Source: an uncultured Pseudomonadota bacterium (GTDB lineage Bacteria; Pseudomonadota; Alphaproteobacteria; RF32; CAG-239). From it: DNA of 64,000 bases. The first letter of the stretch is position 1. Every line of letters begins with the position of its first letter. The stretch spans positions 16,922 through 80,921 of the forward strand of contig CASEYY010000016.1 in assembly GCA_949292335.1 (NCBI GenBank). The letters run 5' to 3'. The position numbers and the translations under genes were made by a program. Of the stretch, positions 1 through 21,690 are shown in pieces. The notes below the pieces were generated by a model that saw nothing but the letters and a program-made list of their open reading frames with translations, searched no databases and was not told the DNA's origin.

Positions 1-578
1 TCAAATTTGTCAAGGTGAAATAAAAATGCCATAATCACAATAAACAATAGCAAAGGAACAATTTTGATAATCGTGCCGATACTGTTGACGATACTGGCTT
101 GCTTAACGCCCTTTAATACCAAAAAGTTAAAACACCAGATAATTATCGAACCGCCGATGATTGAGGGAAGGTTGTTGCCGCCGGCAAAATGCGGCGGGAA
201 AAAATAATTGAGGGCATCCATGGTTATAACCGCATAACCGACATTACCGCAAACCTGACATAGCCAATATGACCAACCAATGGTAAAACCGCTGTATTGT
301 CCGAATCCGGCACGGCTGTATGAGTAAATTCCCGTGGTCAAATCCGGTCTGGCCATGGATAAAATTGAAAATGTGCGGGCAATGAAGTATATGCCTATAC
401 CGGTTATTACCCATGCTAAAAGAACTGCTCCGGCAGAGGCTCCGGAAGCCATATTTTGCGGTAATGAGTATATTCCTCCGCCTATCATTGAGCTGATAAC
501 GATGGCGGCTAGAGCCAATACTCCGAGTCCTCCCTGGTTCCTGCCCGTTGTTGAAGTTTTTGATTTTGTTTCTTTCAT
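1..578 (-). CDS. APC-family arginine/agmatine-type antiporter (AaxC/ArcD-like), N-terminal ~192 codons; gene continues beyond window start
   Basis: Absent from the ORF track because it runs off the window edge. My minus-strand translation from the ATG (complement of 576-578) reads [65 protein letters not shown]..., a polytopic APC-type N-terminus. It lies directly downstream of the arginine decarboxylase gene. Confidence 0.75.
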
Positions 579-600
579 CTTTGTATCCTTTTAATGAATT

Positions 601-630
601 TTGCGGAGCAATTTAGCTATTGCTCCGCAA
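601..630. promoter_or_regulatory. Perfect 12-bp stem / 6-nt loop hairpin between decarboxylase and antiporter genes
   Basis: ttgcggagcaat-ttagct-attgctccgcaa. It is not followed by a T-run on the coding (minus) strand, so it is more likely an intercistronic stability or processing element than a terminator. Confidence 0.4.
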
Positions 631-645
631 ATCTAATATTGCCGA

Positions 646-1230
646 CTATAATTTTACGGCCGGGGCATGTTCAAAGTTTAAGAATCCCATGGCTGTCAGA
701 CTGTAACCAAATTGTTGGGTAATGTTGACATAATTGTGCCACATTTGAAATTCTGAGTGCTTCTCAACACCGCGAATTTCAAGCTCATGCTTTAATGATT
801 TGTTTAGCCACATTTCCGCATGACCTTTGGCAATTTCGTCATCAATGAAAGTATCAAAATATTCTACATATTCGGCAGCCCAGCCTCCGATTAATTCTCC
901 TTTTTTATTTTTGCCCCAGCATACGCCTAATCCGGTGGCAACAGCCTTGTGGTCATCACGGCTGGCTCCGTTGGCGGCCATAATTACTTCTAAAACAGCT
1001 CCATGTTTGAATTGTTTTACAATCTTATCATTTAACGGAACAATTTTGCCGAATAATTCTTTGGGAAGAACCGAGGTATAGGGGATAACATTAAAGTTTT
1101 CTATCTTGGCCTGCATTAATGCAGAGTCGTAGCAGAATGTTTCAAAGGGTTGCGGCGGAATTCCGTCATCGGCTTGTCCGGCTCCTCCGGTAATAAATGC
1201 AAAAGTTGGGTAACGTACACCTTCGGTCAT
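646..1230 (-). CDS. aaxB: Pyruvoyl-dependent arginine decarboxylase (PdaD/AaxB family)
   Basis: 194 aa. The [34 protein letters not shown] block includes the T|S self-cleavage site, and there is a GGWAAEYVE block. It closely resembles my recollection of Chlamydia AaxB. Confidence 0.85.
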
Positions 1231-1252
1231 TTTTATTTCTCCTTTTTCTAAA

Positions 1253-1290
1253 TTAAAAAAAATAAGCAGCTTTTCACAAAGCTACTTATT
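1253..1290 (-). terminator. Rho-independent terminator after pfk
   Basis: aataagcagctt/aagctacttatt stem (11 of 12 pairs), followed on the minus strand by a T-run (A-run 1253-1260 on plus). Confidence 0.55.
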
Positions 1291-1352
1291 TAAGTATAAT
1301 CGAAAACGGGGTTTTCAATAAAAAGTTGAAAATTTTTTATCGTGAATTATTG

Positions 1353-2432
1353 TTAAATTTCTCCGATATAGATGCCTAAGTCTTTGGCGGCTTTTACATA
1401 CTTGCCTTTAGGATCAACCAAAGTAGTACCGGCTTTTACAACATCATTTAATTCAACGGCAGAAACTTCTCCGTTTTTCCAGACAACCATTTTATTATCT
1501 TCGCCTTGAGCAAGCAATTCGACTGCTTTGGCACCAAAAAGCGAAGCTAAAAGACGGTCAAAGGCTACCGGAACACCTGATCTTTGTAAGTGACCGAGAG
1601 TGGTGACGCGGAATTGGAAGTCGTTGTAAACTTTGCTTATTTCGCCGCATAAATATTGGCCGATACCACCGTAAATCATTTCTCCGACCATATTTTTACG
1701 ATTGGTAACCGGAGTACCGTCTTCGGTCTTTAGACCTTCGGACACAACAATAACGGCGTGGTTGCGACCGCGAGCTTTGATTTCTTTTAACTTATTGATA
1801 ATTCCGTTGATGGTATAAGGAATTTCGGGAATTAAGCAAACATCGGCATTACCTGCTAAAGCTGAGTGTAATGCCAAGTGGCCGGCATCGCGTCCCATAA
1901 CCTCGGTAATCATGGCTCGGTTGTGCGAACGTGCGGTTAGTTCCAGACTGTCAATGGCTGTGGTGCAGTACTGTACGGCAGTTTGGAAACCTACCGAAAA
2001 TTCCGTAATCGGAGTGTCGTTATCAATAGTCTTGGGAATGCCGATAATTCGTACCATGGAGCCACGGCACATATTGGAGACAATATTCATACTGCCGTCG
2101 CCGCCGACAACAACAATCGCATCAAGACCAAGTTCTTTAACGCCGGTGGCAAATCTCTTGGAAACTTCTTCCAGTGATTCTATACGCATTCCTTTGTTTA
2201 GAGAGCCTAAATATGAGCCGCTCAGACGAGGCCAGGGCGAGTCGCTAAAATTTTTAACCGTTAAAACTTCATAACGGTGCGGCTTTTCGGTAATGCCTTC
2301 GGTGCCGTCGTTTATCCCATAAACTTCCCAACCTTTCTTTTCGGCTGCTTCAACAACCGAACTGATTACGGCATTAAGGCCGGCACAATCGCCGCCTGAG
2401 GTAAGAACTCCTATTCTTTTAATTTCACTCAT
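1353..2432 (-). CDS. 6-phosphofructokinase (phosphoryl donor ambiguous)
   Basis: 359 aa with GVLTSGGDCAGLNAV, VVGGDGS and PKTIDND motifs of the PFK family. Confidence 0.9.
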   Translation of the reverse strand: MSEIKRIGVLTSGGDCAGLNAVISSVVEAAEKKGWEVYGINDGTEGITEKPHRYEVLTVKNFSDSPWPRLSGSYLGSLNKGMRIESLEEVSKRFATGVKELGLDAIVVVGGDGSMNIVSNMCRGSMVRIIGIPKTIDNDTPITEFSVGFQTAVQYCTTAIDSLELTARSHNRAMITEVMGRDAGHLALHSALAGNADVCLIPEIPYTINGIINKLKEIKARGRNHAVIVVSEGLKTEDGTPVTNRKNMVGEMIYGGIGQYLCGEISKVYNDFQFRVTTLGHLQRSGVPVAFDRLLASLFGAKAVELLAQGEDNKMVVWKNGEVSAVELNDVVKAGTTLVDPKGKYVKAAKDLGIYIGEI

Positions 2433-2543
2433 AGCTTAAAAGACTCCTTTTTAAATTGTTGCATTATTTGTCATTTTGGTGTATACTAATACAGATTTAA
2501 GAGATATTTTCCAGAAAAAAATGTGATTTAATAAGATTTTTTA

Positions 2544-2774
2544 TTGAAAGGGCTTTTTTTTATGTTGAACCAGAATCAAAATGCTCGCTTGTTGCAACAA
2601 CTTTGTGAGCTGAAACTGGAAGAAAGACGCGTCAGATCCGATATTCACCACTTGGTTAAGGATAACAGAACGATCGATTTCTTTAAGGCTAAACAACTTA
2701 ATATCCTTAAAACCGGTGTGAAACAGAAGATTAAGACGGTCGAGTCTAAAATGACACCAAATATTATTGCCTAG
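2544..2774 (+). CDS. Small hypothetical protein (start more likely ATG at 2562)
   Basis: 76-aa ORF, charged and helical, followed by a strong terminator. No motif recognised. Confidence 0.35.
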   Translation: MKGLFFMLNQNQNARLLQQLCELKLEERRVRSDIHHLVKDNRTIDFFKAKQLNILKTGVKQKIKTVESKMTPNIIA

Positions 2775-2788
2775 CTTTTCACTTTTAT

Positions 2789-2820
2789 AAAAAGTCCGGA
2801 CGCTGAGTCCGGACTTTTTT
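2789..2820. terminator. Bidirectional rho-independent terminator
   Basis: aaaaagtccgg-acgctgagt-ccggactttttt, with an A-run and T-run on either side. It lies between convergent genes. Confidence 0.75.
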
Positions 2821-2823
2821 GGT

Positions 2824-4704
2824 TTAGTTCTCCAAGCCTAACAACTTGTATTTAATTCTGACATCCATTTCTTTGGCGTAGTCATCTATCAACTCAGACG
2901 CCAGATTGTCTTCTAACGCTTTCTGCATCTCAAAATTAATACTTTCAAGTTGCTGCTCACTACCAGACTTGGCTTTAATAACCTTAACTGGGGAAACGAT
3001 ATTGGTAACTCCGCCGCCGGAGATAAGGCGATATTCGTTCAATGGGGTTTGGAATACCTCGTTGAGTTGTAAAGAATTTAGTTTGGCAAAAGCTTCGCCT
3101 TTTTTCAAAGGTTGAGTTTGGTTAAGCTTAAGGTTGAATCTTGAAGCTATATCCGATAAGGAATCTCCTTCATCCAAGTTGGCGACAATGTCATTAACAA
3201 TTTCTTGGGCAATCGCCGATTTTTCATTCTCAGCCCAAATCTTGACAATTTCGGGACGAACCTGTTCTAACTCTTTGATTCTGGCTTCATCAATCTTGTT
3301 TACGGAGGCCAAAACAAAACTGTCCTCGGTTTCTATGGTTTGGGTAATCTCATTTTCGTTGTATGAAAATGCCGTATCAATGAAATCGGAAGATGATACC
3401 AACTCGGAGTATTCTTTATTGCTTAATGATTTGTAGCTGCCGTCTTCTCTTAAACCTTTTATGGAGATAATTTTAGTATCATATTTGTCGGATATGTCAT
3501 CTAGAGAAGATCCGCTGCCTATCATATCATCAATTTCGTGCATGACCTCAAGGGCTTTTTCGTAAGCGTATTCTTGTTGCAGAATGTGCCTAATTCTGTT
3601 TTTAACTTCGGAAAGCGGTGTTTCTTTTTTGGGAGTTATTTTGGTAACTCTAATGAGGTGCCAGCCAAAATCTGATTGGATCGGACCGACAATCTCGTTT
3701 ACTTTGGCGTCAAAAACATCTTGTGAAAGTTCCGGTAATAAAGAATCGGCCGTAACATCACCTAATTCCGTGGTTTGTTTGTCCTGATTGGCTTTTTGCA
3801 GGGCAACATCGTAGAAATCTTTGCCGCCTTTTAGCAAGTTAACAGCTTCTACGGCAGCTTCTTCGCTGTCAAATACCATCTGTAATGCCTGACGGGTTTC
3901 CGGAACTACATAATCAGCAAGGTTATCTTGATAGTAGGAGGATATGTCGTCATCCGATATTTGCATCTTTTCGGCCAAGTCGGCAATTTTTAGATTGATA
4001 AAACTAACATCGCGATTTTCGGCTTCTTCAAATTGCGGAGCAAAATCTTCGTAATATTGCTCAATTTCTTCTTCCGTAATGTCACGGTCGATTTTCATGG
4101 TCGAAGGATCAATACTTATATAAGCAAAAACTTTCTCCTGATTGGCAATTTGAGAATAATATTTATTCATAAACTGCGGAAAAGCTATGTTTTCGACCGG
4201 AGAATACACCAAGTGGCGGCTTAAAATATTTTGTTTTAAGTTGTTGATGTACTCTTTCTCGCTCATGTCAAAATAAGAAAGTTGGCGACGCAAAAGTTCG
4301 GGGCTGAAGCGACCGGAGGCGTCCATAAACTCAGGTTGCGAGGCTATAATCTGTTGTATCAATTCATCGGATATGCTGGCATCTTCTTTTTGTGCCTCCC
4401 GCATGATAATCATATCGGTGAGGTTTTGTTTGACCAGTGAGCTTAAGATATCTTTTCTGGTATCATCGTTTAATTCCAGCTCGTAACCCAAGACTTTTTG
4501 CGATTTACGGATGCTGTCTTGCAACTTGGCGTTCATCTCATCTTGCAGAATTTCCATGTTATCCACTTTCAAAACGGCACGATTCTTGCCGGCAGAATTT
4601 ACATAGCCCGAAATTCCGAACAAAGACATGAAACTTAATGCCGTGAGTGCCAAAATCAGTTTGGTTAACCACGAGTCTTGATATTTTCTTATTTTACTTA
4701 TCAT
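2824..4704 (-). CDS. ppiD: Periplasmic chaperone / peptidyl-prolyl isomerase PpiD
   Basis: The N-terminus MISKIRKYQDSWLTKLILALTALSFMSLFG is a signal anchor. A long SurA-like region and a parvulin block (GPIQSDFGWHLIRV) follow. Start chosen at internal Met14 of the ORF, which has an aaggaa RBS. Confidence 0.8.
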   Translation of the reverse strand: MISKIRKYQDSWLTKLILALTALSFMSLFGISGYVNSAGKNRAVLKVDNMEILQDEMNAKLQDSIRKSQKVLGYELELNDDTRKDILSSLVKQNLTDMIIMREAQKEDASISDELIQQIIASQPEFMDASGRFSPELLRRQLSYFDMSEKEYINNLKQNILSRHLVYSPVENIAFPQFMNKYYSQIANQEKVFAYISIDPSTMKIDRDITEEEIEQYYEDFAPQFEEAENRDVSFINLKIADLAEKMQISDDDISSYYQDNLADYVVPETRQALQMVFDSEEAAVEAVNLLKGGKDFYDVALQKANQDKQTTELGDVTADSLLPELSQDVFDAKVNEIVGPIQSDFGWHLIRVTKITPKKETPLSEVKNRIRHILQQEYAYEKALEVMHEIDDMIGSGSSLDDISDKYDTKIISIKGLREDGSYKSLSNKEYSELVSSSDFIDTAFSYNENEITQTIETEDSFVLASVNKIDEARIKELEQVRPEIVKIWAENEKSAIAQEIVNDIVANLDEGDSLSDIASRFNLKLNQTQPLKKGEAFAKLNSLQLNEVFQTPLNEYRLISGGGVTNIVSPVKVIKAKSGSEQQLESINFEMQKALEDNLASELIDDYAKEMDVRIKYKLLGLEN

Positions 4705-4868: not shown

Positions 4869-5627
4869 ATGGCACGCAAAATGATGATTGCCGGAAACTG
4901 GAAAATGAACGGTTTGTCCACCGACGGAGTAAATTTGGCTAAGGAAGTGGCCGCCGCTGTTAAAGCTAAAAAAAGAGATTGCGAATTTGTAGTTTGCCCG
5001 CCGTTTACCATTTTGGCTTTGGTTAAAAAAGCTTTGCGTGGAGCTAAAGTGGCTCTGGGTGGGCAGGATTGTCATTTTGAGGAAAAAGGTGCTCACACCG
5101 GAGATATTAGCCCTTTGATGCTTACCGATTTGGGTTGCTCTTATGTCATTTTGGGGCACTCCGAAAGAAGAGCCGATCATGGCGAATCCGATGAGTTGGT
5201 GTGCAAGAAGGCTGTCGCCGCTCATAAAAGCGGTTTGAAAACAATTATTTGTATCGGAGAGACTTTGCAACAACGCGACGAGGGTAAAACCATTGATGTT
5301 TGCTCAAAGCAAATTTTGGGTTCGGTACCGGAGTGTGCTGACGCCAAAAATACGGTCATCGCTTATGAACCGGTTTGGGCCATCGGTACCGGTAAAACTC
5401 CGACAGCTCAAGATGTCGAGGATGTTCATGCCGCCGTTCGTAAGGTCTTGGCTAAAAAATTGGGAAGAGCCCAAGCTAATAAAATGCGAATCCTCTACGG
5501 TGGTTCGGTTAAACCGAATAATGCCAAAGAATTACTCGCTTTGCCTGATGTCGACGGAGCTCTTATCGGTGGGGCTAGCTTGAAATCAGCCGATTTTATG
5601 GCTATTGCCGATAATGCCGGTTGTTAA
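4869..5627 (+). CDS. tpiA: Triosephosphate isomerase
   Basis: MIAGNWKMNG, ILGHSERR and AYEPVWAIGTG motifs. A gaggag RBS lies upstream of the ATG at 4869. Confidence 0.95.
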   Translation: MARKMMIAGNWKMNGLSTDGVNLAKEVAAAVKAKKRDCEFVVCPPFTILALVKKALRGAKVALGGQDCHFEEKGAHTGDISPLMLTDLGCSYVILGHSERRADHGESDELVCKKAVAAHKSGLKTIICIGETLQQRDEGKTIDVCSKQILGSVPECADAKNTVIAYEPVWAIGTGKTPTAQDVEDVHAAVRKVLAKKLGRAQANKMRILYGGSVKPNNAKELLALPDVDGALIGGASLKSADFMAIADNAGC

Positions 5628-5652
5628 TTTGAATTAGATAAGGAAAATTAAA

Positions 5653-5988
5653 ATGGGAACAGTTTTATTGGTTATTCATTTGTTGGTTTGCATTTTCTTG
5701 GTGGCTTGTATATTAATGCAAAGATCCACCGGCGGTGCGTTGGACGGCTTGGGCGGCGGTTCGGGAGCATCGAGCTTTTTGAGTGTCAGAGGTACCGGAA
5801 ATTTGCTCACCAGAACTACGGCAATATTAGCTACTTTGTTGTTTGTTACCAGTATTTCTTTGGCTTTGTATTATCGCGGACAAGCCAGACCGGCCGAGTC
5901 TTTATTGGATAAGGCGGCTGCCGAACAAACCGTGCCGGCCAATAATCCGGCTAATGATATTCCGCAGGCTCCGGTGGCAGAAAAATAA
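5653..5988 (+). CDS. secG: Preprotein translocase subunit SecG
   Basis: 111 aa with two TM helices and an LLQRS-type motif (ILMQRSTGG). It sits in the classic tpiA-secG position. Confidence 0.85.
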   Translation: MGTVLLVIHLLVCIFLVACILMQRSTGGALDGLGGGSGASSFLSVRGTGNLLTRTTAILATLLFVTSISLALYYRGQARPAESLLDKAAAEQTVPANNPANDIPQAPVAEK

Positions 5989-6011
5989 GGAACAACATTA
6001 TGATAGATAAC

Positions 6012-6052
6012 TTAAGGGCATCTTTCCAATAAATTAGGGAAGGTGCCCTTAA
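6012..6052 (+). terminator. Long hairpin after secG
   Basis: ttaagggca ... tgcccttaa outer stem with inner tttcc/gggaa pairing, followed by ctcttt. Confidence 0.4.
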
Positions 6053-6086
6053 CTCTTTGAAATATTTATATAACGGGAATTTGAAA

Positions 6087-7724
6087 ATGTCTGAAAATAC
6101 CAAATTTATATTTATTACCGGCGGTGTGGTCTCTTCTTTGGGAAAAGGGTTGGCTTCGGCTTCGTTGTCTTCTATTCTGCAGTCCAGAGGGTTTAAGGTT
6201 AGGATGAGAAAACTCGATCCGTATCTTAATGTTGATCCGGGAACAATGAGCCCTTATCAACATGGCGAGGTGTTTGTTACCGACGACGGTGCCGAAACTG
6301 ATTTGGATTTGGGACATTATGAAAGATTTTCCGGTGTGCCTTGCCATAAAACCGATAGTGTTACAACCGGAAAAATTTATCAACGCGTAATTGACAAAGA
6401 AAGGCACGGAGATTATCTCGGAGCTACAATTCAGGTCATTCCTCATGTTACCAATGAAATTAAAGATTTTATTCTTTCGGATATTACAGACGAGGACTTT
6501 GTGCTTTGTGAAATCGGCGGTACCGTCGGTGATATTGAAGGCCAGCCGTATTTGGAAGCCATTCGTCAGGTAGCATATGAATTGGGCAGGGAAAGAGCCA
6601 TGTTTATTCATGTAACCTTATTGCCGTATATTCCAACCGCCGGTGAGCTTAAAACCAAACCAACGCAACACTCGGTTAAAAAACTGCAAGAATACGGAAT
6701 TCAACCGGATATGCTATTGTGTCGTTCGCAAATGCCAATTCCGCAAAACGAAAAACGCAAGATTGCATTGTTCTGCAATATCAGAGAAGAAAATGTTATT
6801 GCGGCTTTGGATGTGTCGAGCATTTATGAAGTCCCGATTGCTTATTCTCGTGAGGGTATGGATAAAGCAGTGTGCAGACATTTCGGAATTGCTTGTGACA
6901 GTGAACCGGATTTAAGCAAGTGGGAAAGAATTTTGGAAAATATTAGGCATCCCGAAGGCGAGGTCAGAATTGCCGTGGTGGGCAAATATGTTAAGTTGCT
7001 GGAAGCTTATAAATCTCTTAATGAAGCTTTAACTCACGGCGGTATTGCCAATAAATATAAGGTGAAAGTAAAGTGGATAGATTCTGAAATTTTAGAAACG
7101 GAGTCGCCGGATGAGCATTTGAATGATGTCAGTGCCATACTGGTTCCGGGAGGATTCGGACAACGCGGTACCGAAGGAAAAATTAATGCCATAAAATATG
7201 CCAGAGAACATAAAATTCCGTTCTTAGGTATTTGTTTCGGTATGCAAATGGCCGTAATCGAAACCATGAGAAATGTGGCAGGAATAAAAAATGCAGGAAC
7301 TACCGAATTTAGTGCTGATTGTGAGCCGGTTGTGGGTTTGATGACCGAATGGGATAAAGAGGGAGCCAAGCAAATCAGGCATAAGGACGGTGATCTCGGC
7401 GGCACCATGCGATTGGGTGCTTACGATTGTGTATTGGCTCCTAATTCCTTAACCGCTAAAATTTATGGTAGGGAAAAGATATCGGAAAGACATCGCCACA
7501 GATATGAAGTGAATATGAAATACGAAGATACTTTAAGACGTTCGGGGATGGATATCGTCGGAAAGTCCCCCGACGGTAAATTGCCGGAAATCGTGGAGAT
7601 AAAAGATCATCCGTGGTTTGTTGCCGTGCAGTTCCATCCGGAATTAAAATCAAAGCCGTTTGATCCGGCTCCTTTATTTGTCTCTTTTGTAAAGGCAGCT
7701 ATTGACAAAAGCAGGTTGATTTAA
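6087..7724 (+). CDS. pyrG: CTP synthase
   Basis: [17 protein letters not shown]-terminus and a GICFGMQ glutamine amidotransferase motif. Start taken at the ATG at 6087. Confidence 0.95.
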
Positions 7725-16480: not shown

Positions 16481-17257
16481 ATGAGTGTGTTTATGCATGG
16501 ATTGTTGGCGGCATTGGCTGCCGGAATGTTTACCGGTTTGGGCGGGTTATGTATATTTATAAAAAAACGATACTCAAAATCGGAAATTAACCAGCTGCTT
16601 AATTTGGCGGCCGGAGTGATGTTGGCGGCATCGTTCTTTTCGCTATTAGTGCCTTCAATGAATGATATCATCAAATATGATGAACAAAATTTGTATCAAG
16701 ATGCTTTGACTTATGTATTGTCGATTTTTGCCGGCGTGTTGTTGGTGTGGATATTAAATCTGGTGTTGCCACATGAACATAACGCCATGGGACGGCATGG
16801 ACCAAATTTTGATGTGAAAAAAGCTTGGCTGTTTATTATTGCCATAACTTTGCACAAACTTCCCGAAGGATTAGCCGTGGGAGTGGCATATGGTGCGGAG
16901 GCAATAATAAATCCGTTGTCTTTGGTAATAGGTATTGCCGTTCATAATATTCCCGAAGGTCTGACAATCGCGATATCCTTAATCGGGGCAGGGTATTCCA
17001 AACTTAAAGCATCTTTCGTGGCTTTTATTATCGGTTTTATACAACCGGTGGGAGCTTTGGTTGGGTTGTTGTTGATGGATATCAGCTTTAATATCATTCC
17101 TTATGGAATGGCTTTAGCCGGAGGTACCATGTTGTTTGTGGTCATCAACGAGATTTTGCCGGAAACCTACGGGATGAAAAACAGCAATAAATCAGCCGCG
17201 GCCGTGTTTTTAGGCTTTATTGTCATGACTTTTATTTCAATAGTTTTTCATGAATAA
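16481..17257 (+). CDS. zupT: ZIP-family zinc transporter
   Basis: 258 aa, polytopic, with HKLPEGLAVG and HNIPEGL motifs. Confidence 0.85.
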   Translation: MSVFMHGLLAALAAGMFTGLGGLCIFIKKRYSKSEINQLLNLAAGVMLAASFFSLLVPSMNDIIKYDEQNLYQDALTYVLSIFAGVLLVWILNLVLPHEHNAMGRHGPNFDVKKAWLFIIAITLHKLPEGLAVGVAYGAEAIINPLSLVIGIAVHNIPEGLTIAISLIGAGYSKLKASFVAFIIGFIQPVGALVGLLLMDISFNIIPYGMALAGGTMLFVVINEILPETYGMKNSNKSAAAVFLGFIVMTFISIVFHE

Positions 17258-17273
17258 AAAAACAAAAAAACTG

Positions 17274-17302
17274 TTGACGGAAAAATAAACTTAAGTTAAA
17301 TA
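17274..17302 (+). promoter_or_regulatory. Sigma-70-type promoter for tRNA-Ser(GCU)
   Basis: TTGACG-17 nt-TAAATA, ending about 15 nt upstream of the tRNA 5' end. Confidence 0.55.
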
Positions 17303-17317
17303 TAAGCCCAGTGCCAA

Positions 17318-17405
17318 GGAGAGTTGGCAGAGTGGTAATGCAGCGGATTGCTAATCCGTCATCGGGAATACCGATGCACAGGTTCGAGTCCTGTACTCTC
17401 CGCCA
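17318..17405 (+). tRNA. tRNA-Ser(GCU), CCA encoded
   Basis: Acceptor GGAGAGT/ACTCTCC, anticodon loop ttGCTaa, long variable arm, T-loop ggttcgagtcc. Confidence 0.9.
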
Positions 17406-17412
17406 CTAAAAA

Positions 17413-17445
17413 ACAGCTGTTTGCTTTTGCAAGCAGCTGTTTTTT
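17413..17445 (+). terminator. Rho-independent terminator after tRNA-Ser(GCU)
   Basis: 12-bp stem acagctgtttgc/gcaagcagctgt, tttt loop, T-run. Confidence 0.8.
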
Positions 17446-17543
17446 GTATTTCTTTGTTTGCAAAATATAACTTGTTTTTGACACTTGTGTAAATGTGGTG
17501 TAGGACTCGTTTCGGTTAAGTAAATTAATGGAGAGTTTATACT

Positions 17544-18518
17544 ATGTGGGAAAAAATTGAATACATATTTACGCATCATGCCGTATTATCACAAGAGGCT
17601 ATGTGGAGCATTTTCGGCATCGTGGTATTGGCTTTGTTGTTTTTTGATTTATTCCTGTTTAATCGCAAAAATGAAGTACCTGATTTTACGCATACATTAA
17701 TCCTTTGCATACTATATATCGCCGCGGCTTGTGTTTTCGGAATATTTGTGATTTACGAAGAGGGAATCGCCAAAGGTATGGACTTTTTTACCGGGTTTTT
17801 GGTCGAAAAAAGTTTGTCTTTGGATAATATTTTTATTATGTCTTTGGTCTTTGCCTCAATCGGAGTGCCGCGTCAATATCAACACCGTGTCTTGTTCTGG
17901 GGAATCTTGGGCGCTATTGTTATGCGGGCGTTACTTATTTATGTCGGTGAAACGTTGATTGTTCATTTCCATTGGGTGCTCTATGTGTTTTCTGCTATTT
18001 TGGTTTGTACCGGCGTCAAAATGCTGTGGGCGAAAAATGAACATAATTCCGATTTTAAGGATTCAAAAGTCTATGCCCTCATTGCAAAAACATTTCGGGT
18101 TACCAAAAAAATTCATGGCCCGCATTTTGTAGTTAAGAAAAACAAAAAATATTATATAACTCCGCTTTTGTTTGCTCTGTTGGTGATTGAAACCATGGAT
18201 GTTATTTTTGCCTTAGACAGCATTCCCGCGATATTTTTGATTACGCAGGATGTGTTTATTGTTTATACCAGTAACATATTTGCAATCTTAGGATTGCGAG
18301 CTTTATATTTCTTGTTGGAAGCCGTAGTACATAAATTCAAATATTTAAAACCGGCTTTGGCAATTATTTTAATTTTTATCGGGCTTAAGATATTTGTACC
18401 GAAGTTGTTTGGTTTTGAGTTGGAGGCTTGGCATTCTTTGTCGGTTACCTTTGGGCTTTTATTTGGTGGAATTGTGTTTTCTATGTATAAAACCAGAGAA
18501 ATTAAGTCGGCTGAATAA
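17544..18518 (+). CDS. TerC/Alx-family integral membrane protein
   Basis: 324 aa, polytopic, with the EKSLSLDNIF and FALDSIPAIF paired TerC motifs. Confidence 0.8.
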   Translation: MWEKIEYIFTHHAVLSQEAMWSIFGIVVLALLFFDLFLFNRKNEVPDFTHTLILCILYIAAACVFGIFVIYEEGIAKGMDFFTGFLVEKSLSLDNIFIMSLVFASIGVPRQYQHRVLFWGILGAIVMRALLIYVGETLIVHFHWVLYVFSAILVCTGVKMLWAKNEHNSDFKDSKVYALIAKTFRVTKKIHGPHFVVKKNKKYYITPLLFALLVIETMDVIFALDSIPAIFLITQDVFIVYTSNIFAILGLRALYFLLEAVVHKFKYLKPALAIILIFIGLKIFVPKLFGFELEAWHSLSVTFGLLFGGIVFSMYKTREIKSAE

Positions 18519-18533
18519 AACTTAAAAAAACTC

Positions 18534-18562
18534 TTGCCAAAAAAATAAATGCGTATTATAGT
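18534..18562 (+). promoter_or_regulatory. Sigma-70-type promoter for tRNA-Lys
   Basis: TTGCCA-17 nt-TATAGT, about 20 nt upstream of the tRNA 5' end. Confidence 0.5.
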
Positions 18563-18582
18563 CCGCACTGTCGTTGATTGAT

Positions 18583-18658
18583 GGGTGCGTAGCTCAGTTG
18601 GTAGAGCAACTGACTCTTAATCAGTGGGTCTGGGGTTCGAACCCCCACGCGCCTACCA
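18583..18658 (+). tRNA. tRNA-Lys(CUU), CCA encoded
   Basis: 76-nt cloverleaf folded by hand: GGGTGCG acceptor, GCTC/GAGC D-stem, ACTGA-ctCTTaa-TCAGT anticodon arm, TGGGG-ttcgaac-CCCCA T-arm. Confidence 0.9.
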
Positions 18659-18733
18659 ATAAAAAAGGTCTCTTTAGGAGACCTTTTTTTATTGGGTAGG
18701 TAATGTTGGGTTTGAACCACAGACACTGGGGTT
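18641..18733 (+). repeat. Direct repeat copy 1 (tRNA-Lys T-loop/acceptor 3' end + terminator + ~45-nt tail)
   Basis: acccccacgcgcctaccaataaaaaaggtctctttaggagacc...ggtaggtaatgttgggtttgaaccacagacactggggtt recurs at 18827-18917 with a few substitutions and a 1-nt indel. Confidence 0.9.
18661..18690 (+). terminator. Rho-independent terminator after tRNA-Lys
   Basis: aaaaaaggtctc-tttag-gagaccttttttt. Confidence 0.8.
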
Positions 18734-18826
18734 CGACTACCAGCGAAAGCGATACGGGGGTATCGCGGTGAGCGTAAGCGAATGAGTGCCAGTGCAACTC
18801 GAGCCTTTGATAGAAGGCGAAGAGTA
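18734..18826 (+). other. Unassigned GC-rich 93-nt segment with three predicted hairpins, sitting inside the T-loop of the duplicated tRNA-Lys 3' fragment
   Basis: gcgatac-gggg-gtatcgc, gagtgc-cagt-gcaactc and gcctt-tgatag-aaggc stems. It is visibly more GC-rich than its surroundings and is flanked by ctggggttcga on the left and acccccacgcgcctacca on the right. Confidence 0.3.
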
Positions 18827-18917
18827 ACCCCCACGCGCCTACCAATAAAAAAGGTCTCTTTAGGAGACCTTTTTTATTGGTAGGTAATGTCGGGTTTGAA
18901 CCCCAGAGACTGGGGTT
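18827..18917 (+). repeat. Direct repeat copy 2 (pseudo tRNA-Lys 3' end + terminator copy + tail)
   Basis: See copy 1. It includes a second CCA-ending acceptor strand and a second terminator hairpin (18847-18875). Confidence 0.9.
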
Positions 18918-19042
18918 ACCTGTATTGCAAGGTTCAAAAATTTTTTATGATTATTTTGTTTCATATTCAATAAATGCTTGCTTTCATATCTTTTTTATCT
19001 ATAAAATAAATGCGAAAGTTTTTTAACAAGGAGATATTATCA

Positions 19043-19831
19043 ATGAAATTTGTCAAATATACTTTGCTCTCATTACTGGCAGTTATCGTAATCGCTATTA
19101 TTGCCGCTTGGGTCTATTTAGAGCCTTTGGTTAAAGGTGTCGTTCATAAATTCGGTACTCAAGTTGTTGGCACCGAAGTTACTTTGGATGGTTTCAAATT
19201 GCATCCTATTGACGGCGAATTGGAAATTACCGGTCTTAAGGTTGCCAATCCGCAAGGTTATAAAGAACCCAATTTGCTGAGCTTGGGTAGAGTTTTTGTA
19301 AAAGTAGATGTTAAGAGCTTATATTCTGATACCATAGTCGTCGAAAATATCAGAGTTACAGCTCCGGAAATTACCTATGAAATGCCGAATTTTACGACCA
19401 GCAATATTCAGCAAATTCAAGAAAATGTTTCTAAAAATACCGCTTCAACCAAAAACAAACAGCCGGTTAAGGAAGAAAAAACCGAGGCTAAATCAGAGCC
19501 GGCCAAGAGTGTGGTTATTCGCAATGTCTTGGTTGAAGATGGTAAACTTTCTGCCTTGACTCCGTTGCAGAAAAATGGAGAAGCTTTAGTTCTGGATTTG
19601 CCGGCTGTCGAAATTACGGGTATCGGGGATGGTCGCAAAAATATGACTATCGACGAATCCTTAACAGTGGTCTTCAACAGAATTCTCTTTAATGCTACTT
19701 CCGTTGCCACCAAAGCTTTGGGTAATGTTTCCGAAGCAGCTCAGAAAATTGCTAATCAGGCTGCAGAGCAAGCCAAAGGAAAAGTTAAAGAAGAAGCCGA
19801 AGGTTTGTTGGATAAAGTTAAATTCTGGTAG
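19043..19831 (+). CDS. Hypothetical membrane-anchored protein
   Basis: N-terminal TM (LLSLLAVIVIAIIAAWVYL), a beta-rich middle region, a K/E-rich linker and an amphipathic C-terminus. Start at the ATG at 19043, which has an aaggag RBS. No family recognised with confidence. Confidence 0.6.
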   Translation: MKFVKYTLLSLLAVIVIAIIAAWVYLEPLVKGVVHKFGTQVVGTEVTLDGFKLHPIDGELEITGLKVANPQGYKEPNLLSLGRVFVKVDVKSLYSDTIVVENIRVTAPEITYEMPNFTTSNIQQIQENVSKNTASTKNKQPVKEEKTEAKSEPAKSVVIRNVLVEDGKLSALTPLQKNGEALVLDLPAVEITGIGDGRKNMTIDESLTVVFNRILFNATSVATKALGNVSEAAQKIANQAAEQAKGKVKEEAEGLLDKVKFW

Positions 19832-19850
19832 TATTTATTTTCAGGCCACA

Positions 19851-19880
19851 AAAAAGCATCCGATTTCGGATGCTTTCTTT
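19851..19880. terminator. Hairpin terminator (bidirectional position)
   Basis: aaaaagcatccg-attt-cggatgctttcttt. A near-copy lies at 20003-20035 with the loop reverse-complemented (aaat). Confidence 0.7.
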
Positions 19881-19882
19881 GT

Positions 19883-19972
19883 TGGCGGAGAGGCAGAGAT
19901 TCGAACTCTGGGTGGGCTCGCGCCCACGACGGTTTGGGCCTTTGGCCATCTGCGATTCCAAGACCGCTGCAT
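19883..19972 (-). pseudogene. tRNA-Ser 3' fragment (acceptor 3' strand+CCA, T-arm, variable arm, anticodon arm with ~22-nt insertion, end of D-arm)
   Basis: Identical to the intact tRNA-Ser(UGA) at 20038-20127 over the 3' half apart from one variable-loop substitution. It carries the extra gaatcgcagatggccaaaggccc in the anticodon loop, and homology stops inside the D-arm. Confidence 0.8.
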
Positions 19973-20002
19973 CAAGTAGCTTGTAATGTAATATTTAAGC
20001 AC

Positions 20003-20035
20003 AAAAAAAGCATCCGAAATCGGATGCTTTTTTTT
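20003..20035 (-). terminator. Rho-independent terminator after tRNA-Ser(UGA)
   Basis: gcatccg-aaat-cggatgc stem flanked by an A-run and a T-run, immediately 3' of the tRNA on the minus strand. Confidence 0.75.
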
Positions 20036-20037
20036 AT

Positions 20038-20127
20038 TGGCGGAGAGGCAGAGATTCGAACTCTGGGTGGGCTCGCACCCACGACGGTTTTCAAGACCGC
20101 TGCATTAAACCACTCTGCCACCTCTCC
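20038..20127 (-). tRNA. tRNA-Ser(UGA), CCA encoded
   Basis: The reverse complement folds as GGAGAGG acceptor, GCA/TGC D-stem, GCGGT-ctTGAaa-ACCGT anticodon arm, GTGGG..CCCAC variable arm, CAGAG-ttcgaat-CTCTG T-arm, then G-CCA. Confidence 0.9.
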
Positions 20128-20190
20128 ATTAGGTGTCAAATAAAAATAATATCCTTTTGTGAAAACCGTCAAGAAACTTCGTTTCTTATC

Positions 20191-20258
20191 CGACGGTTTG
20201 GGCCTTCGGCCATCTGCGATTCCAAGACCGCTGCATTAAACCACTCTGCCACCTCTCC
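20191..20258 (-). pseudogene. tRNA-Ser 5' fragment (acceptor 5' strand, D-arm, anticodon arm with the same ~22-nt insertion)
   Basis: Matches the 5' half of the intact gene, carries gaatcgcagatggccgaaggccc in the anticodon loop, and ends after ccgtcg. It shares a 46-nt direct repeat (1 mismatch) with 19927-19972. Confidence 0.8.
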
Positions 20259-20415
20259 ATTGGACGCAGCTTAAGAAGTTCGCTTTGCTTTTTATATGAA
20301 ACTTTTATAAAGGTCAAGATTTATTTTATGATACTTTATAAAAAATTATTTTTTATGCCGTTAAATCTTTTTTTAATCAAAGGGATTTATTATCACTGTA
20401 AAAAGGGGAATAATC

Positions 20416-21690
20416 GTGAAAAAAAATATCTTGGTGTGGGTTTTAAGTTTGCAAATTTGCTCGTTCGCAACTTGGGCTCAGGCAGATAATAATCCACCTA
20501 AAGAATATTTGGATTGGCTGGATAACTTAAAGAAAGAAATGCTTGAAAAAGGTATTTCTCAAAAAACTATTGATAAAGTCTATGGTAATAATACTTTTTA
20601 TCATGCCACGCCAAATGCCGTTAAAAGTGATCGTAAACAACTCGAATTCGTCTTAACATCCGCCGATTATCTCAATCGAGTGGTCAATAAAAAACGAGTG
20701 GAAAAAGGGCAAGAATATTATACTAATTTACAGCCTTTTTTACAAAAATTAGAAAGCAAATATAATGTACAAGGTGAGTACATTATCGCATTTTGGGGAA
20801 TAGAAACCAATTTCGGTACTAACTTCGGCGGACATAATGTAATTGATGCCTTGACCGAAATGAGTTACGATACAAGACGTCCGCAATTTTTTAAAAAAGA
20901 ATTATATCAAGCTTTGAAAATTGTTGATGATTGGAATGTCGATTTTAATAAAATGCAAGGCTCTTGGGCCGGAGCAATGGGACATTTTCAGTTTATGCCT
21001 TCGACATTTAATGCTTACGCCGTGGATTATAATGATGACGGGGAAATTGATATTTGGGCAACCTTTGAAGATGCCGCAGCTTCCGCCGCAAATTATTTAA
21101 CCGAAATCGGTTGGAAAAAAGATATGCCTTGGGGACAAGAAGTAATTTTACCGTGGAATTTTGACTATTCTATGACCGGAAGAAATAAACCTCAATCTCC
21201 GCAAAAATGGCAAAAAATGGGTGTGAAATCAATAAATAATAAAAAATTGTCAGTGCCAGATACCTGTCAGGCCTCTATTATTACGCCGGAAGGAAAAAAA
21301 GGCAGGGTTTATCTTATTTGCGATAACTTTTATCGTATAATGCAATGGAATCGTTCCGAAAATTATGCTTTGGCGGTCGGGATTTTGGCCGATTACATTA
21401 AAACCGGTAAAAAATGGAAGAAAATAAATCCGAATTCAGCACCAAAAATAAAAACCGAAGATGTCATGAAAATTCAGTCTTTTATCAACAAATTAGGGTG
21501 GTTTGAGCTTGAAGAAGACGGTATGCTCGGCTCAAAAACTCGCGAAGCCATCAAAAAAGTTCAGAAAAAAGCTTTAATGCAACAAGACGGATATCCCGAT
21601 TACCTGCTGTTGCATAAAATAAATAATTATAATTCCGATATCGGATTTAGTGTGCCGGTGCCAGAAAGAAAATTACACAAGGCAAAATAA
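20416..21690 (+). CDS. Lytic murein transglycosylase (MltB/SLT_2 family) with C-terminal peptidoglycan-binding domain
   Basis: Signal peptide, GIETNFG catalytic-Glu block, GAMGHFQFMPSTF block and a C-terminal PG_binding_1-like LGWFELEEDGMLGSKTREAIKKVQ segment. GTG start. Confidence 0.85.
   Translation: MKKNILVWVLSLQICSFATWAQADNNPPKEYLDWLDNLKKEMLEKGISQKTIDKVYGNNTFYHATPNAVKSDRKQLEFVLTSADYLNRVVNKKRVEKGQEYYTNLQPFLQKLESKYNVQGEYIIAFWGIETNFGTNFGGHNVIDALTEMSYDTRRPQFFKKELYQALKIVDDWNVDFNKMQGSWAGAMGHFQFMPSTFNAYAVDYNDDGEIDIWATFEDAAASAANYLTEIGWKKDMPWGQEVILPWNFDYSMTGRNKPQSPQKWQKMGVKSINNKKLSVPDTCQASIITPEGKKGRVYLICDNFYRIMQWNRSENYALAVGILADYIKTGKKWKKINPNSAPKIKTEDVMKIQSFINKLGWFELEEDGMLGSKTREAIKKVQKKALMQQDGYPDYLLLHKINNYNSDIGFSVPVPERKLHKAK

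Follow-up and report, generated by a model that had tools for sequence, protein, structure and literature searches.

Directly behind the tRNA-Lys(CUU) gene in a 64,000-nt stretch of DNA from an uncultured alphaproteobacterium (GenBank assembly GCA_949292335.1, contig CASEYY010000016.1, positions 16,922 to 80,921 of the forward strand; hereafter the window), the 3' end of the tRNA is repeated on either side of a 90-nt insert, which we denote B. We consider it probable that this locus represents one and a half units of a tRNA-linked cassette of the RtT type, the repeats found behind tyrT of Escherichia coli, and that it belongs to a large, new branch of such cassettes. The parts of the locus, in window coordinates, are as follows.

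18534..18562, plus strand: promoter-like site of the tRNA-Lys gene, TTGCCA-17 nt-TATAGT (promoter scan)
18583..18658, plus strand: intact tRNA-Lys(CUU) with encoded CCA (ARAGORN; Rfam tRNA, 69.2 bits)
18640..18733, plus strand: repeat copy A1, consisting of tRNA positions 58-76, terminator hairpin, inverted tail and start of the T-arm 5' copy (repeat analysis)
18661..18689, plus strand: terminator-like hairpin 1, AAAAAAGGTCTC-TTTAG-GAGACCTTTTTT (inverted-repeat analysis)
18690..18725, plus strand: tail 1, a diverged inverted copy of tRNA positions ~47-76 (sequence and inverted-repeat analysis)
18726..18735, plus strand: copy of the 5' half of the cognate T-arm, with C48, T-stem TGGGG and T-loop TTCG to G57 (sequence)
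18736..18825, plus strand: B insert, ACTACCA...GAGT, 90 nt (covariance model match 18727-18833, 81.8 bits; covariation)
18826..18917, plus strand: repeat copy A2 (sequence and repeat analysis)

The direct repeat recognized in the initial annotation is borne out: 18640-18733 recurs at 18826-18917, with 100% identity over the first 50 nt (18640-18689 and 18826-18875) and 88% over the rest (18686-18733 versus 18870-18917) at an offset of 184-186 nt, and an exact repeat of 50 nt within 64 kb is far above chance expectation. The T-stem of the gene lies at 18631-18635 and 18643-18647 and its T-loop at 18636-18642; the 5' side of this T-arm, ctggggtt (CTGGGGTT), occurs at 18630, 18726 and 18910, the three sites first reported. 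Each unit is a long imperfect palindrome around the hairpin GGTCTC-TTTAG-GAGACC, which is followed by a T-run. The inverted tail and terminator-centred palindrome that had been described are thereby confirmed: in copy 2 the arms (18838-18858 and 18864-18884) show 100% complementarity over 21 nt, and the pairing between 18629-18644 and 18892-18907 reaches 94%. Hairpin 1 can be extended into the tRNA 3' end via CCTACCAAT and ATTGGGTAGG; a simple terminator scan did not call it at 18661..18689, probably since the A and T tracts pair. The end of tail 1, GAACCACAG, pairs as a hairpin with the downstream T-arm 5' copy.

Copy A2 opens with tRNA positions 58-76 (18826-18844), which do not differ from 18640-18658, and continues with terminator hairpin 2 (18847-18875) and tail 2 (18876-18909); at 18910-18917 the T-arm 5' start, CTGGGGTT, occurs for the third time, in truncated form. 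A2 is the start of a second unit without the insert, and the period is 186 nt because the next unit restarts at tRNA position 58. Neither ARAGORN nor the Rfam tRNA model called a second tRNA within 18659-18917, in agreement with the earlier remark that the second copy does not form a cloverleaf. The 90 nt between the repeats hold no coding frame in plus-strand gene orientation, and no known RNA family was recognized in them. At the B junction A58 is the sole ambiguous base, and no recombination core is duplicated around B. On both strands of 18400-19100, the tRNA-Lys promoter is the sole promoter-like site. An assembly artefact is unlikely because two close relatives with independent assemblies, G076 and G019, share the order of tRNA, insert and 3' copy.

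The same 1.475-Mb genome holds five copies of the B spacer by similarity and nine by covariance model, those found by similarity elsewhere lying behind tRNA-Leu(CAG), tRNA-Val(UAC), tRNA-Pro(UGG) and the 3' half of a tRNA-Arg(UCU). Their parts follow a common order: the tRNA with its terminator, the 3' part of this tRNA copied in inverted orientation, a spacer of 2-6 nt, the 5' half of its own T-arm copied in sense and ending in GGTT(C/T)G, the insert, which begins ACTAC(A/C)AG and closes with ..AGT, and the tRNA's own positions 58-76. B is lodged in each case between T-loop positions 57 and 58 of the cognate T-arm copy. The succession of inverted T-arm copy, spacer and sense T-arm 5' half was found in 170 of 221 junctions. 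Of 91 distinct copies, 89-91 have the junction TT(C/T)G|ACTAC; at the right-hand junction, ..AGT|A(N)(N)CC, nothing is duplicated. The length of the 3'-end repeat varies by locus from 8 to 92 nt, reaching beyond the tRNA into terminator and tail. Tandem arrays are present on contig C35 of this genome and in relatives. Of the 40 tRNA genes in the genome, 11 or more have their own 3' end copied downstream, or an insert junction there, with a conserved insert of some family.

RtT repeats behind E. coli tyrT were reportedly described in 1978 by Egan and Landy, and the RNA in 1991 by Bosl and Kersten; from these two studies and that of Rossi et al. in 1981, a stable RNA is said to be cut from the tyrT transcript and to end at the copied CCA. 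This account agrees with the K-12 annotation, in which rttR begins 7 nt past tyrV and stops at the CCA of the first unit. Read directly from the tyrT-tyrV locus of K-12, each unit of 178 bp includes GGGGAAGGATGAGAAGCTTCGA (the T-arm and acceptor of tRNA-Tyr in inverted orientation, with an altered loop), a spacer of 3-4 nt such as CCA, and AGGTTCGA, the T-arm 5' half. An insert of 67 nt, CTCGAGCG(C/A)(C/A)AGCGAGAG...GCGAAGCGCGCAGCGCTGAGT, comes next, CTCGAG standing directly after AGGTTCGA, and the unit ends with AATCCTTCCCCCACCACCA, the 19 nt of positions 58-76. The likeness to the window locus is extensive, a parallel that the initial annotation did not draw. Both lie directly 3' of a tRNA gene in tandem, with periods of 178 nt in E. 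coli and 186 nt in the window, and both units close with the last 19 nt of the tRNA, including CCA. Window positions 18690-18736, like the E. coli unit, run from an inverted T-arm copy through a spacer and a sense T-arm 5' half to an insert in the T-loop. This insert is in both cases GC-rich and hairpin-rich, follows GGTTCGA, starts with CT.. and ends with ..GAGT, and the motifs AGCGAAAGCGAGA and GCGAAGCGC..GAGTA are common to the two.

Applied to the E. coli locus, the B model gave the four RtT units as its top four matches (12.5-19.9 bits), and alignment of the inserts alone, window-type against E. coli, reached z values of 3.2-4.2, with none of 200 shuffles as good. The E. coli units reach 133-138 bits with the model of the Rfam family RF00391, to our knowledge known solely from enterobacteria, where it follows tRNA-Tyr; the model covers the exact unit, its consensus pairing the inverted tail with the 3' copy. 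There are also clear differences. The E. coli insert, of about 67 nt, has no H1 hairpin (see below), and its units carry about 70 nt of extra spacer and a small tpr reading frame, which the window element does not have, and no internal intrinsic terminator; the 3' end of RF00391 matches tRNA-Tyr, whereas the alphaproteobacterial element is found behind at least 23 tRNA species in hundreds of copies. By its sequence organization, the window locus is best described as the same kind of element as RtT and not as a member of the family RF00391. According to a 2024 preprint, the product of rttR, rtT RNA, is involved with tyrT transcript processing and may modulate the stringent response, its mode of action being unknown (10.1101/2024.07.17.603846).

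The B copies share a fold. In the parsed copies the near-invariant junction TT(C/T)G|ACTAC(A/C)A leads into a 5-bp stem, P1, that exists in many complementary versions (GCGAA/TGAGC with tandem G.A, GGCAA/TTGCC, GCAAT/ATTGC, GGAGT/ACTCC, GGGCT/AGCCC and others). Within P1 stands a hairpin, H1, whose base covaries beneath a fixed top, A(G/T)AC-GNNN-GTAT, and which is followed by an invariant GG. Downstream of this GG come a hypervariable hairpin H2, the junction GC(N)NGTG(C)A, an optional hairpin P3, and an A ahead of tRNA positions 59-60 and the 3' strand of the T-stem. In the window copy these elements are the junction ACUACCA; P1, GCGAA/TGAGT with tandem G.A; inside it H1 (GCGATAC-GGGG-GTATCGC), GG and H2 (TGAGC-GTAA-GCGAA); and, after P1, the junction GCCAGTGCA and P3 (ACTC..GCCTT-TGATAG-AAGGC..GAGT). 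Alignment of five copies with MAFFT and RNAalifold recovered just one helix, and a strict parser lost half of the copies, so a covariance model was used instead. In the resulting alignment, which was fitted to the structure model, 88.3% of cells are standard pairs compared with 69.1% in shuffles, and 26 of 28 pairs have changed on both sides. The covariation score is 0.43 versus 0.129 in shuffles, none of 500 reaching 0.43, and slid partners give 0.04-0.08. Helix 1, the T-stem, covaries by construction, being copied from each tRNA, and helices 2-6 lie within the insert. These comparisons show that the predicted B fold is conserved and maintained by compensatory changes over about 90 distinct copies.

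Several features of the fold suggest that it is an RNA. At its centre P1 has tandem G.A in some copies and Watson-Crick pairs in others, G.U wobbles fall on the plus strand, and the H1 loops are mostly GNNN and often GNRA. The T-loop split by the insert keeps the tRNA pattern among 91 distinct copies (T54 in 88, T55 in 89, G57 in 89, A58 in 91, G53 in 90 and C61 in 87), and position 56 is C in 59 and T in 31. In tRNA, C56 makes the contact with the D-loop; its relaxation would fit a retained RNA T-loop fold, because the partial copy has no D-loop partner. The P1 G.A pairs, the GNRA-type loops and the T-loop pattern all point in the same direction.

The distribution of the element was established from metagenome-assembled genomes (MAGs), the counts being drawn from samples of the family, and with a covariance model built from seven equal-length B copies, the E-values of which are rough. 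A simple insert pattern matched 27 of 36 other genomes searched in the same genus, with 1-11 matches each; its reversed form, used as a control, gave 0 matches, and the pattern is absent from 24 genomes of other families. Among the collected loci the covariance model has 97 matches, and 116 distinct tRNA-plus-module loci involve 23 tRNA species. Across the family, which consists of uncultured gut Alphaproteobacteria, the model is positive in 141 of 151 genomes and 22 of 23 genera, with 1-18 copies per genome, amounting to about 800-900 copies behind at least 23 tRNA species; it has no match in the single genome of the sister family. In a species-level collection, pattern matches occur in MAGs of uncultured Alphaproteobacteria of gut and rumen, Candidatus Enterousia and Candidatus Scatocola among them, the hosts being sheep, yak, deer, rabbit, chicken and human. 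Nine pattern matches carried the labels of other taxa. Seven of them, lacking a model match, and one that was marginal at 17 bits were rejected. The ninth (L170, JAISVX010000003.1, labelled as a Lactobacillaceae MAG) is an 829-kb contig with a full module behind tRNA-Ser(UGA); the contig carries Gram-negative-type genes, among them a MlaC/Ttg2D-like gene, and judging from this gene content its taxonomic label is probably wrong.

Modules also border larger segments of other DNA. On contig C46 of this genome (C46:16900-20300, 309-3100), a 2.4-kb islet with a Tlde1-domain (toxin-type) gene, small open reading frames and no recombinase is flanked on both sides by about 34 nt of T-arm 5' copy and the 5' part of B, att-core-like inside the module; the right-hand copy retains tRNA-fMet from the anticodon loop on, the fMet 3' half lying at the far side of the islet. 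This tRNA-fMet 3' half, which starts in the anticodon loop with its natural upstream context, holds B in its T-loop and has no inverted tail. In the relative G014 (G014:C10:160000-163500, locus L044, 700-2830), a 1.97-kb unit behind tRNA-Pro(CGG) is bracketed by two blocks of tail, T-arm 5' copy and B, and its cargo consists of a 395-residue protein with a helix-turn-helix (HTH) domain and a MORN-repeat protein. On contig C40 (C40:28000-40000, 5436-6880), a 356-residue tyrosine integrase is followed by the 3' half of tRNA-Arg(UCU), from the anticodon loop on, and then by a full module. Since an intact tRNA-Arg(UCU) without a module is found on contig C35, the C40 island looks to have displaced a 3' half that already bore the module.

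Integrative elements in tRNA 3' ends typically leave direct repeats, and the locus had initially been read as an att-like scar. This holds for its form, in that a duplicated tRNA 3' end is att-like, and fails for its supposed history, the single integration followed by near-complete deletion. That a tyrosine-integrase island inserted in the tRNA-Lys 3' end and was later almost wholly deleted, leaving attL- and attR-like repeats, is in our judgement very unlikely. Such repeats are the classic signature of that process, modules bracket the small cargo islets of G014 (1.97 kb) and C46 (2.4 kb, with Tlde1), and the C40 module comes after an integrase and a displaced tRNA-Arg 3' half. The spacer, however, is no random island remnant; it is a conserved, structured and covarying module present nine times in this genome, in 141 of the 151 family genomes and at no fewer than 23 tRNA species. 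Moreover, the T-arm copy is split at 57/58 without a duplicated core, the repeat extends past the tRNA by a length that differs between loci, the window locus has no integrase and just 90 nt between its repeats, and the intact integrases of the genome are the two Xer-sized ones and that of C40, whose integration event appears to have displaced a 3' half already carrying the module.

The other origin first proposed, a one-off product of replication slippage or template switching at the terminator-centred palindrome, with no element involved, we regard as highly improbable, the conserved B spacer recurring at many tRNAs. It would explain why the tRNA segments run forward, reverse and forward, which is the layout of a snap-back tandem inversion duplication, and why the first turn falls at the terminator hairpin in every locus, and unequal recombination between the repeats would account for arrays and empty sites; but it leaves the 90-nt insert unaccounted for. 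The second turn always falls at the T-stem boundary, with a spacer of 4-6 nt, and the collected loci include no insert-free zig-zag duplications that could be precursors of this type. A fresh fold-back origin of the tail was likewise rejected, as tails are imperfect even in modules whose flanking repeats are 100% identical. The uninterrupted 3' copy behind the tRNA-Ser(UGA) of the window (19883-20258, minus strand) is a different arrangement from the B cassette: there the tRNA is followed by a near-complete copy of its 3' two-thirds with an insertion in the anticodon loop.

Comparison among relatives reveals the element in several states. At tRNA-Val(UAC), the relative G019 has the tRNA, terminator and flank of an empty site; the genome studied here has a 184-nt insertion made up of a diverged inverted tRNA part, a T-arm 5' copy, B and a further 51 nt in which tRNA 3' end and terminator are duplicated; and G076 has the same arrangement plus an unrelated, second element of 96 nt at the GTTCG|A junction. 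This 96-nt element (G076:C9, locus L110, ~1414-1509, minus strand), beginning ACTAACAAGTCCCGCGATAAGTGGGAC..., stands immediately 5' of B and is a singleton, with no further copy in the sequence searched. The tRNA-Lys(CUU) locus of related genomes is likewise filled, empty, tandem or decayed: the window insert is present in G076 and G019, where the second tail has decayed further, the site is unoccupied in G031 and G013, units are arrayed in tandem in G065, and decayed variants are found in G016, G012 and G068, which bears out the recombination-prone character originally ascribed to it. Subtypes of B differ at one tRNA between genomes, and one subtype occurs at several tRNAs within a genome. 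Copies at the Lys locus combine differing 5' halves with a shared P3 specific to that locus, a pattern suggestive of gene conversion between copies.

A mobilising enzyme was sought in vain. This genome has no match to a reverse transcriptase and, rated 100% complete, none to the Y1 transposase family PF01797. It encodes three intact tyrosine recombinases, the two Xer-sized ones and that of C40, and a few resolvases, and none of its PF00589 matches lies at the window locus. Among 56 genomes of the genus, TnpB-like domains exceed the cut-off in one and IS110-type domains in four; the present genome has one IS110-type transposase, a 369-residue frame, at C13:19076-19504. The HTH-domain protein of the G014 unit was considered as the enzyme and discarded, being present in just 7 of the 56 genomes. 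A longer, protein-coding and hence autonomous form of B was also rejected, the 5'-only copies being truncations that run into ordinary genes. The link to an integrase raised in the initial annotation was not substantiated: the locus and its immediate surroundings are free of integrases, and the presence of the element does not follow that of any recombinase family.

These data bear on the alternative that B is a selfish DNA element resembling miniature inverted-repeat transposable elements, with single-stranded DNA hairpins and a transposase acting in trans or since lost, which homes to the T-loop TTCG and whose RNA has no function. We hold this to be unlikely. The insertion is exact, 3' of TTCG and without duplication, and in G076 a second element occupies the identical junction. 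The copies are numerous, variable in presence and often truncated or decayed, subtypes are mixed over tRNAs and genomes, and on the minus strand a GTAG stands 2 nt from the foot of a hairpin, as in repetitive extragenic palindromic (REP) sequences. Set against this, the Y1 transposase is missing from this genome, and TnpB-like and IS110-type domains are confined to 1 and 4 of the 56 genus genomes, yet B is present in 141 of 151 family genomes. The terminal hairpins are dissimilar, unlike IS200/IS605 ends; tandem G.A pairs, GNRA-type loops and T-loop conservation favour RNA; and the inverted tail, cognate to each tRNA, is left unexplained. In addition, rtT of E. coli is reported, by Bosl and Kersten in 1991, to be a stable, processed RNA. 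In the 2024 preprint the rttR product is named rtT RNA (10.1101/2024.07.17.603846).

The explanation that we favour, and think reasonably likely, is composite: an RtT-type cassette in which B acts as a T-loop insertion element, arrays recombine and a tRNA-like RNA is processed from the transcript. B would be, or would once have been, an insertion element whose specific target is the T-loop in redundant copies of the T-arm. Unequal homologous recombination between the blocks of tRNA 3' end and terminator could grow, shrink and remove arrays and restore clean empty sites. By analogy with E. coli rtT RNA, transcription from the tRNA promoter may run on through the cassette, and the enzymes that process tRNAs may then cut the product down to an RNA with a tRNA-like CCA end, on which B would stand out from the preserved T-loop motif. 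Transcription of B would need such read-through, because a terminator precedes the module and the only promoter upstream is that of the tRNA. Our best guess for this RNA is that it imitates part of a tRNA and interacts with a factor that binds tRNAs.

A number of observations weigh against this composite explanation. An intrinsic terminator separates tRNA and module, whereas the E. coli tyrT locus has none. The fold energy of the window copy as a single sequence is not significantly better than that of shuffles (z = -1.4), and support for the fold is therefore comparative, from an alignment to which, as stated, the structure model was itself fitted. Many of the copies have been cut short or have decayed, which one would expect if the element is selfish and not if its RNA is needed. 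The presence of the element follows that of no integrase, transposase or reverse transcriptase, no insertion enzyme was found, and the explanation does not account for the way in which the inverted tail and cognate flanks would originate at a new tRNA. RF00391 (gathering score 45 bits) has no match at E <= 1 in 17000-20500; with that model blank on the window and the B model weak on E. coli, common descent with RtT is not proven by these sequences. Finally, the relaxed C56 could instead reflect a C-to-T mutational hotspot in TTCGAA, for example a methylated site, because the inverted copy carries the same change: TTCGAA is TTTGAA in 56 of 170 inverted copies, the window sites being 18706-18711 and 18890-18895.

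A broader proposition, which we put forward as quite unlikely and speculative, is that RtT-type cassettes form a widespread, unrecognised class in which an RNA or DNA module homes to the T-loop, prepares a harmless landing site for itself when the 3' end of the tRNA is copied by fold-back, leaving the essential gene intact, and spreads without a dedicated transposase, its product being a partial tRNA mimic (T-loop, acceptor 3' strand and CCA) whose target is a factor that senses tRNAs. If true, such a T-loop-homing class would explain E. coli RtT.

Other inserts occur next to duplicated tRNA 3' ends in this genome. The cassettes of a second family, F2, have the core GCTAACTCGCTGCGGTCACCGC with an internal terminator, and each is followed by a copy of its own tRNA 3' end. 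They lie at C15:250-433, C28:13191-13369 joined to C10:21744-21922, C37:6663-6835 and C21:9703-9868, behind tRNA-Arg(ACG), tRNA-Lys(UUU) (where two units in tandem span a contig break), tRNA-His and tRNA-Thr(CGU), with partial copies upstream of tRNA-Val(GAC) and tRNA-Pro(GGG); the start of F2, CCAAGGTTCG, is similar to the spacer and T-arm 5' copy of E. coli RtT. A third insert type, ended by the terminator AAAAAAC(A/G)CCGGAGCAACGG(T/C)GTTTTT, stands between tRNA-Glu(CUC), tRNA-Pro(GGG) or tRNA-Arg and their 3'-end copies (C34:~4270-4440, C45:~4275-4460 and C15:~250-300), and also at tRNA-Arg(UCU) of G003.

A literature search on T-loop-inserting miniature elements returned nothing comparable, and the cassette resembles several known systems in part. 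The T-loop is, reportedly since the work of Williams in 2002, a known crossover sublocation for integration into tRNA genes; the cassette shares with att sites this crossover position, the direct repeat of the tRNA 3' end and the occasional flanking of cargo, and differs in that the window locus lacks an integrase and a duplicated core, a conserved structured insert replaces island DNA, the repeat varies in length past the terminator and the cassette includes an inverted tRNA copy. Duplicated tRNA 3' ends are, as a caution to annotators, not always integration scars. With the miniatures derived from IS200/IS605 and with REP sequences and bacterial interspersed mosaic elements (BIMEs) it has in common that it is short, hairpin-rich and multi-copy, that insertion is strand-specific, 3' of a fixed motif and without target duplication, and that a second insertion at one site is possible; it differs in its dissimilar end hairpins, flanks rebuilt from the target tRNA, RNA-type pairing and absence of a Y1 transposase. 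Like the TnpB omega RNA and the IS110 bridge RNA, it is a structured scaffold followed directly by about 19 nt of flank, here positions 58-76, with a fixed motif on the opposite side of the insertion point, whereas its scaffold is unrelated and shorter, no effector protein is evident and the two enzymes are rare in the genus (1 and 4 of 56 genomes). Tandem inversion duplications, which in Salmonella are said by the Roth laboratory to form by snap-back at quasi-palindromes, share the forward-reverse-forward order and one turn at a natural palindrome, here the terminator, but the cassette is on a scale of 30-90 nt, has the same layout at many loci and always includes B. The closest counterpart is E. 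coli RtT, relative to which the alphaproteobacterial set has the same anatomy in a distant lineage and is far larger and more varied. Natural variation within it suffices for deriving the fold from covariation, for recognizing empty, filled, tandem and decayed states, and for fixing the insertion point at 57/58, so that the old curiosity of RtT is now open to comparative genomics and simple experiments.

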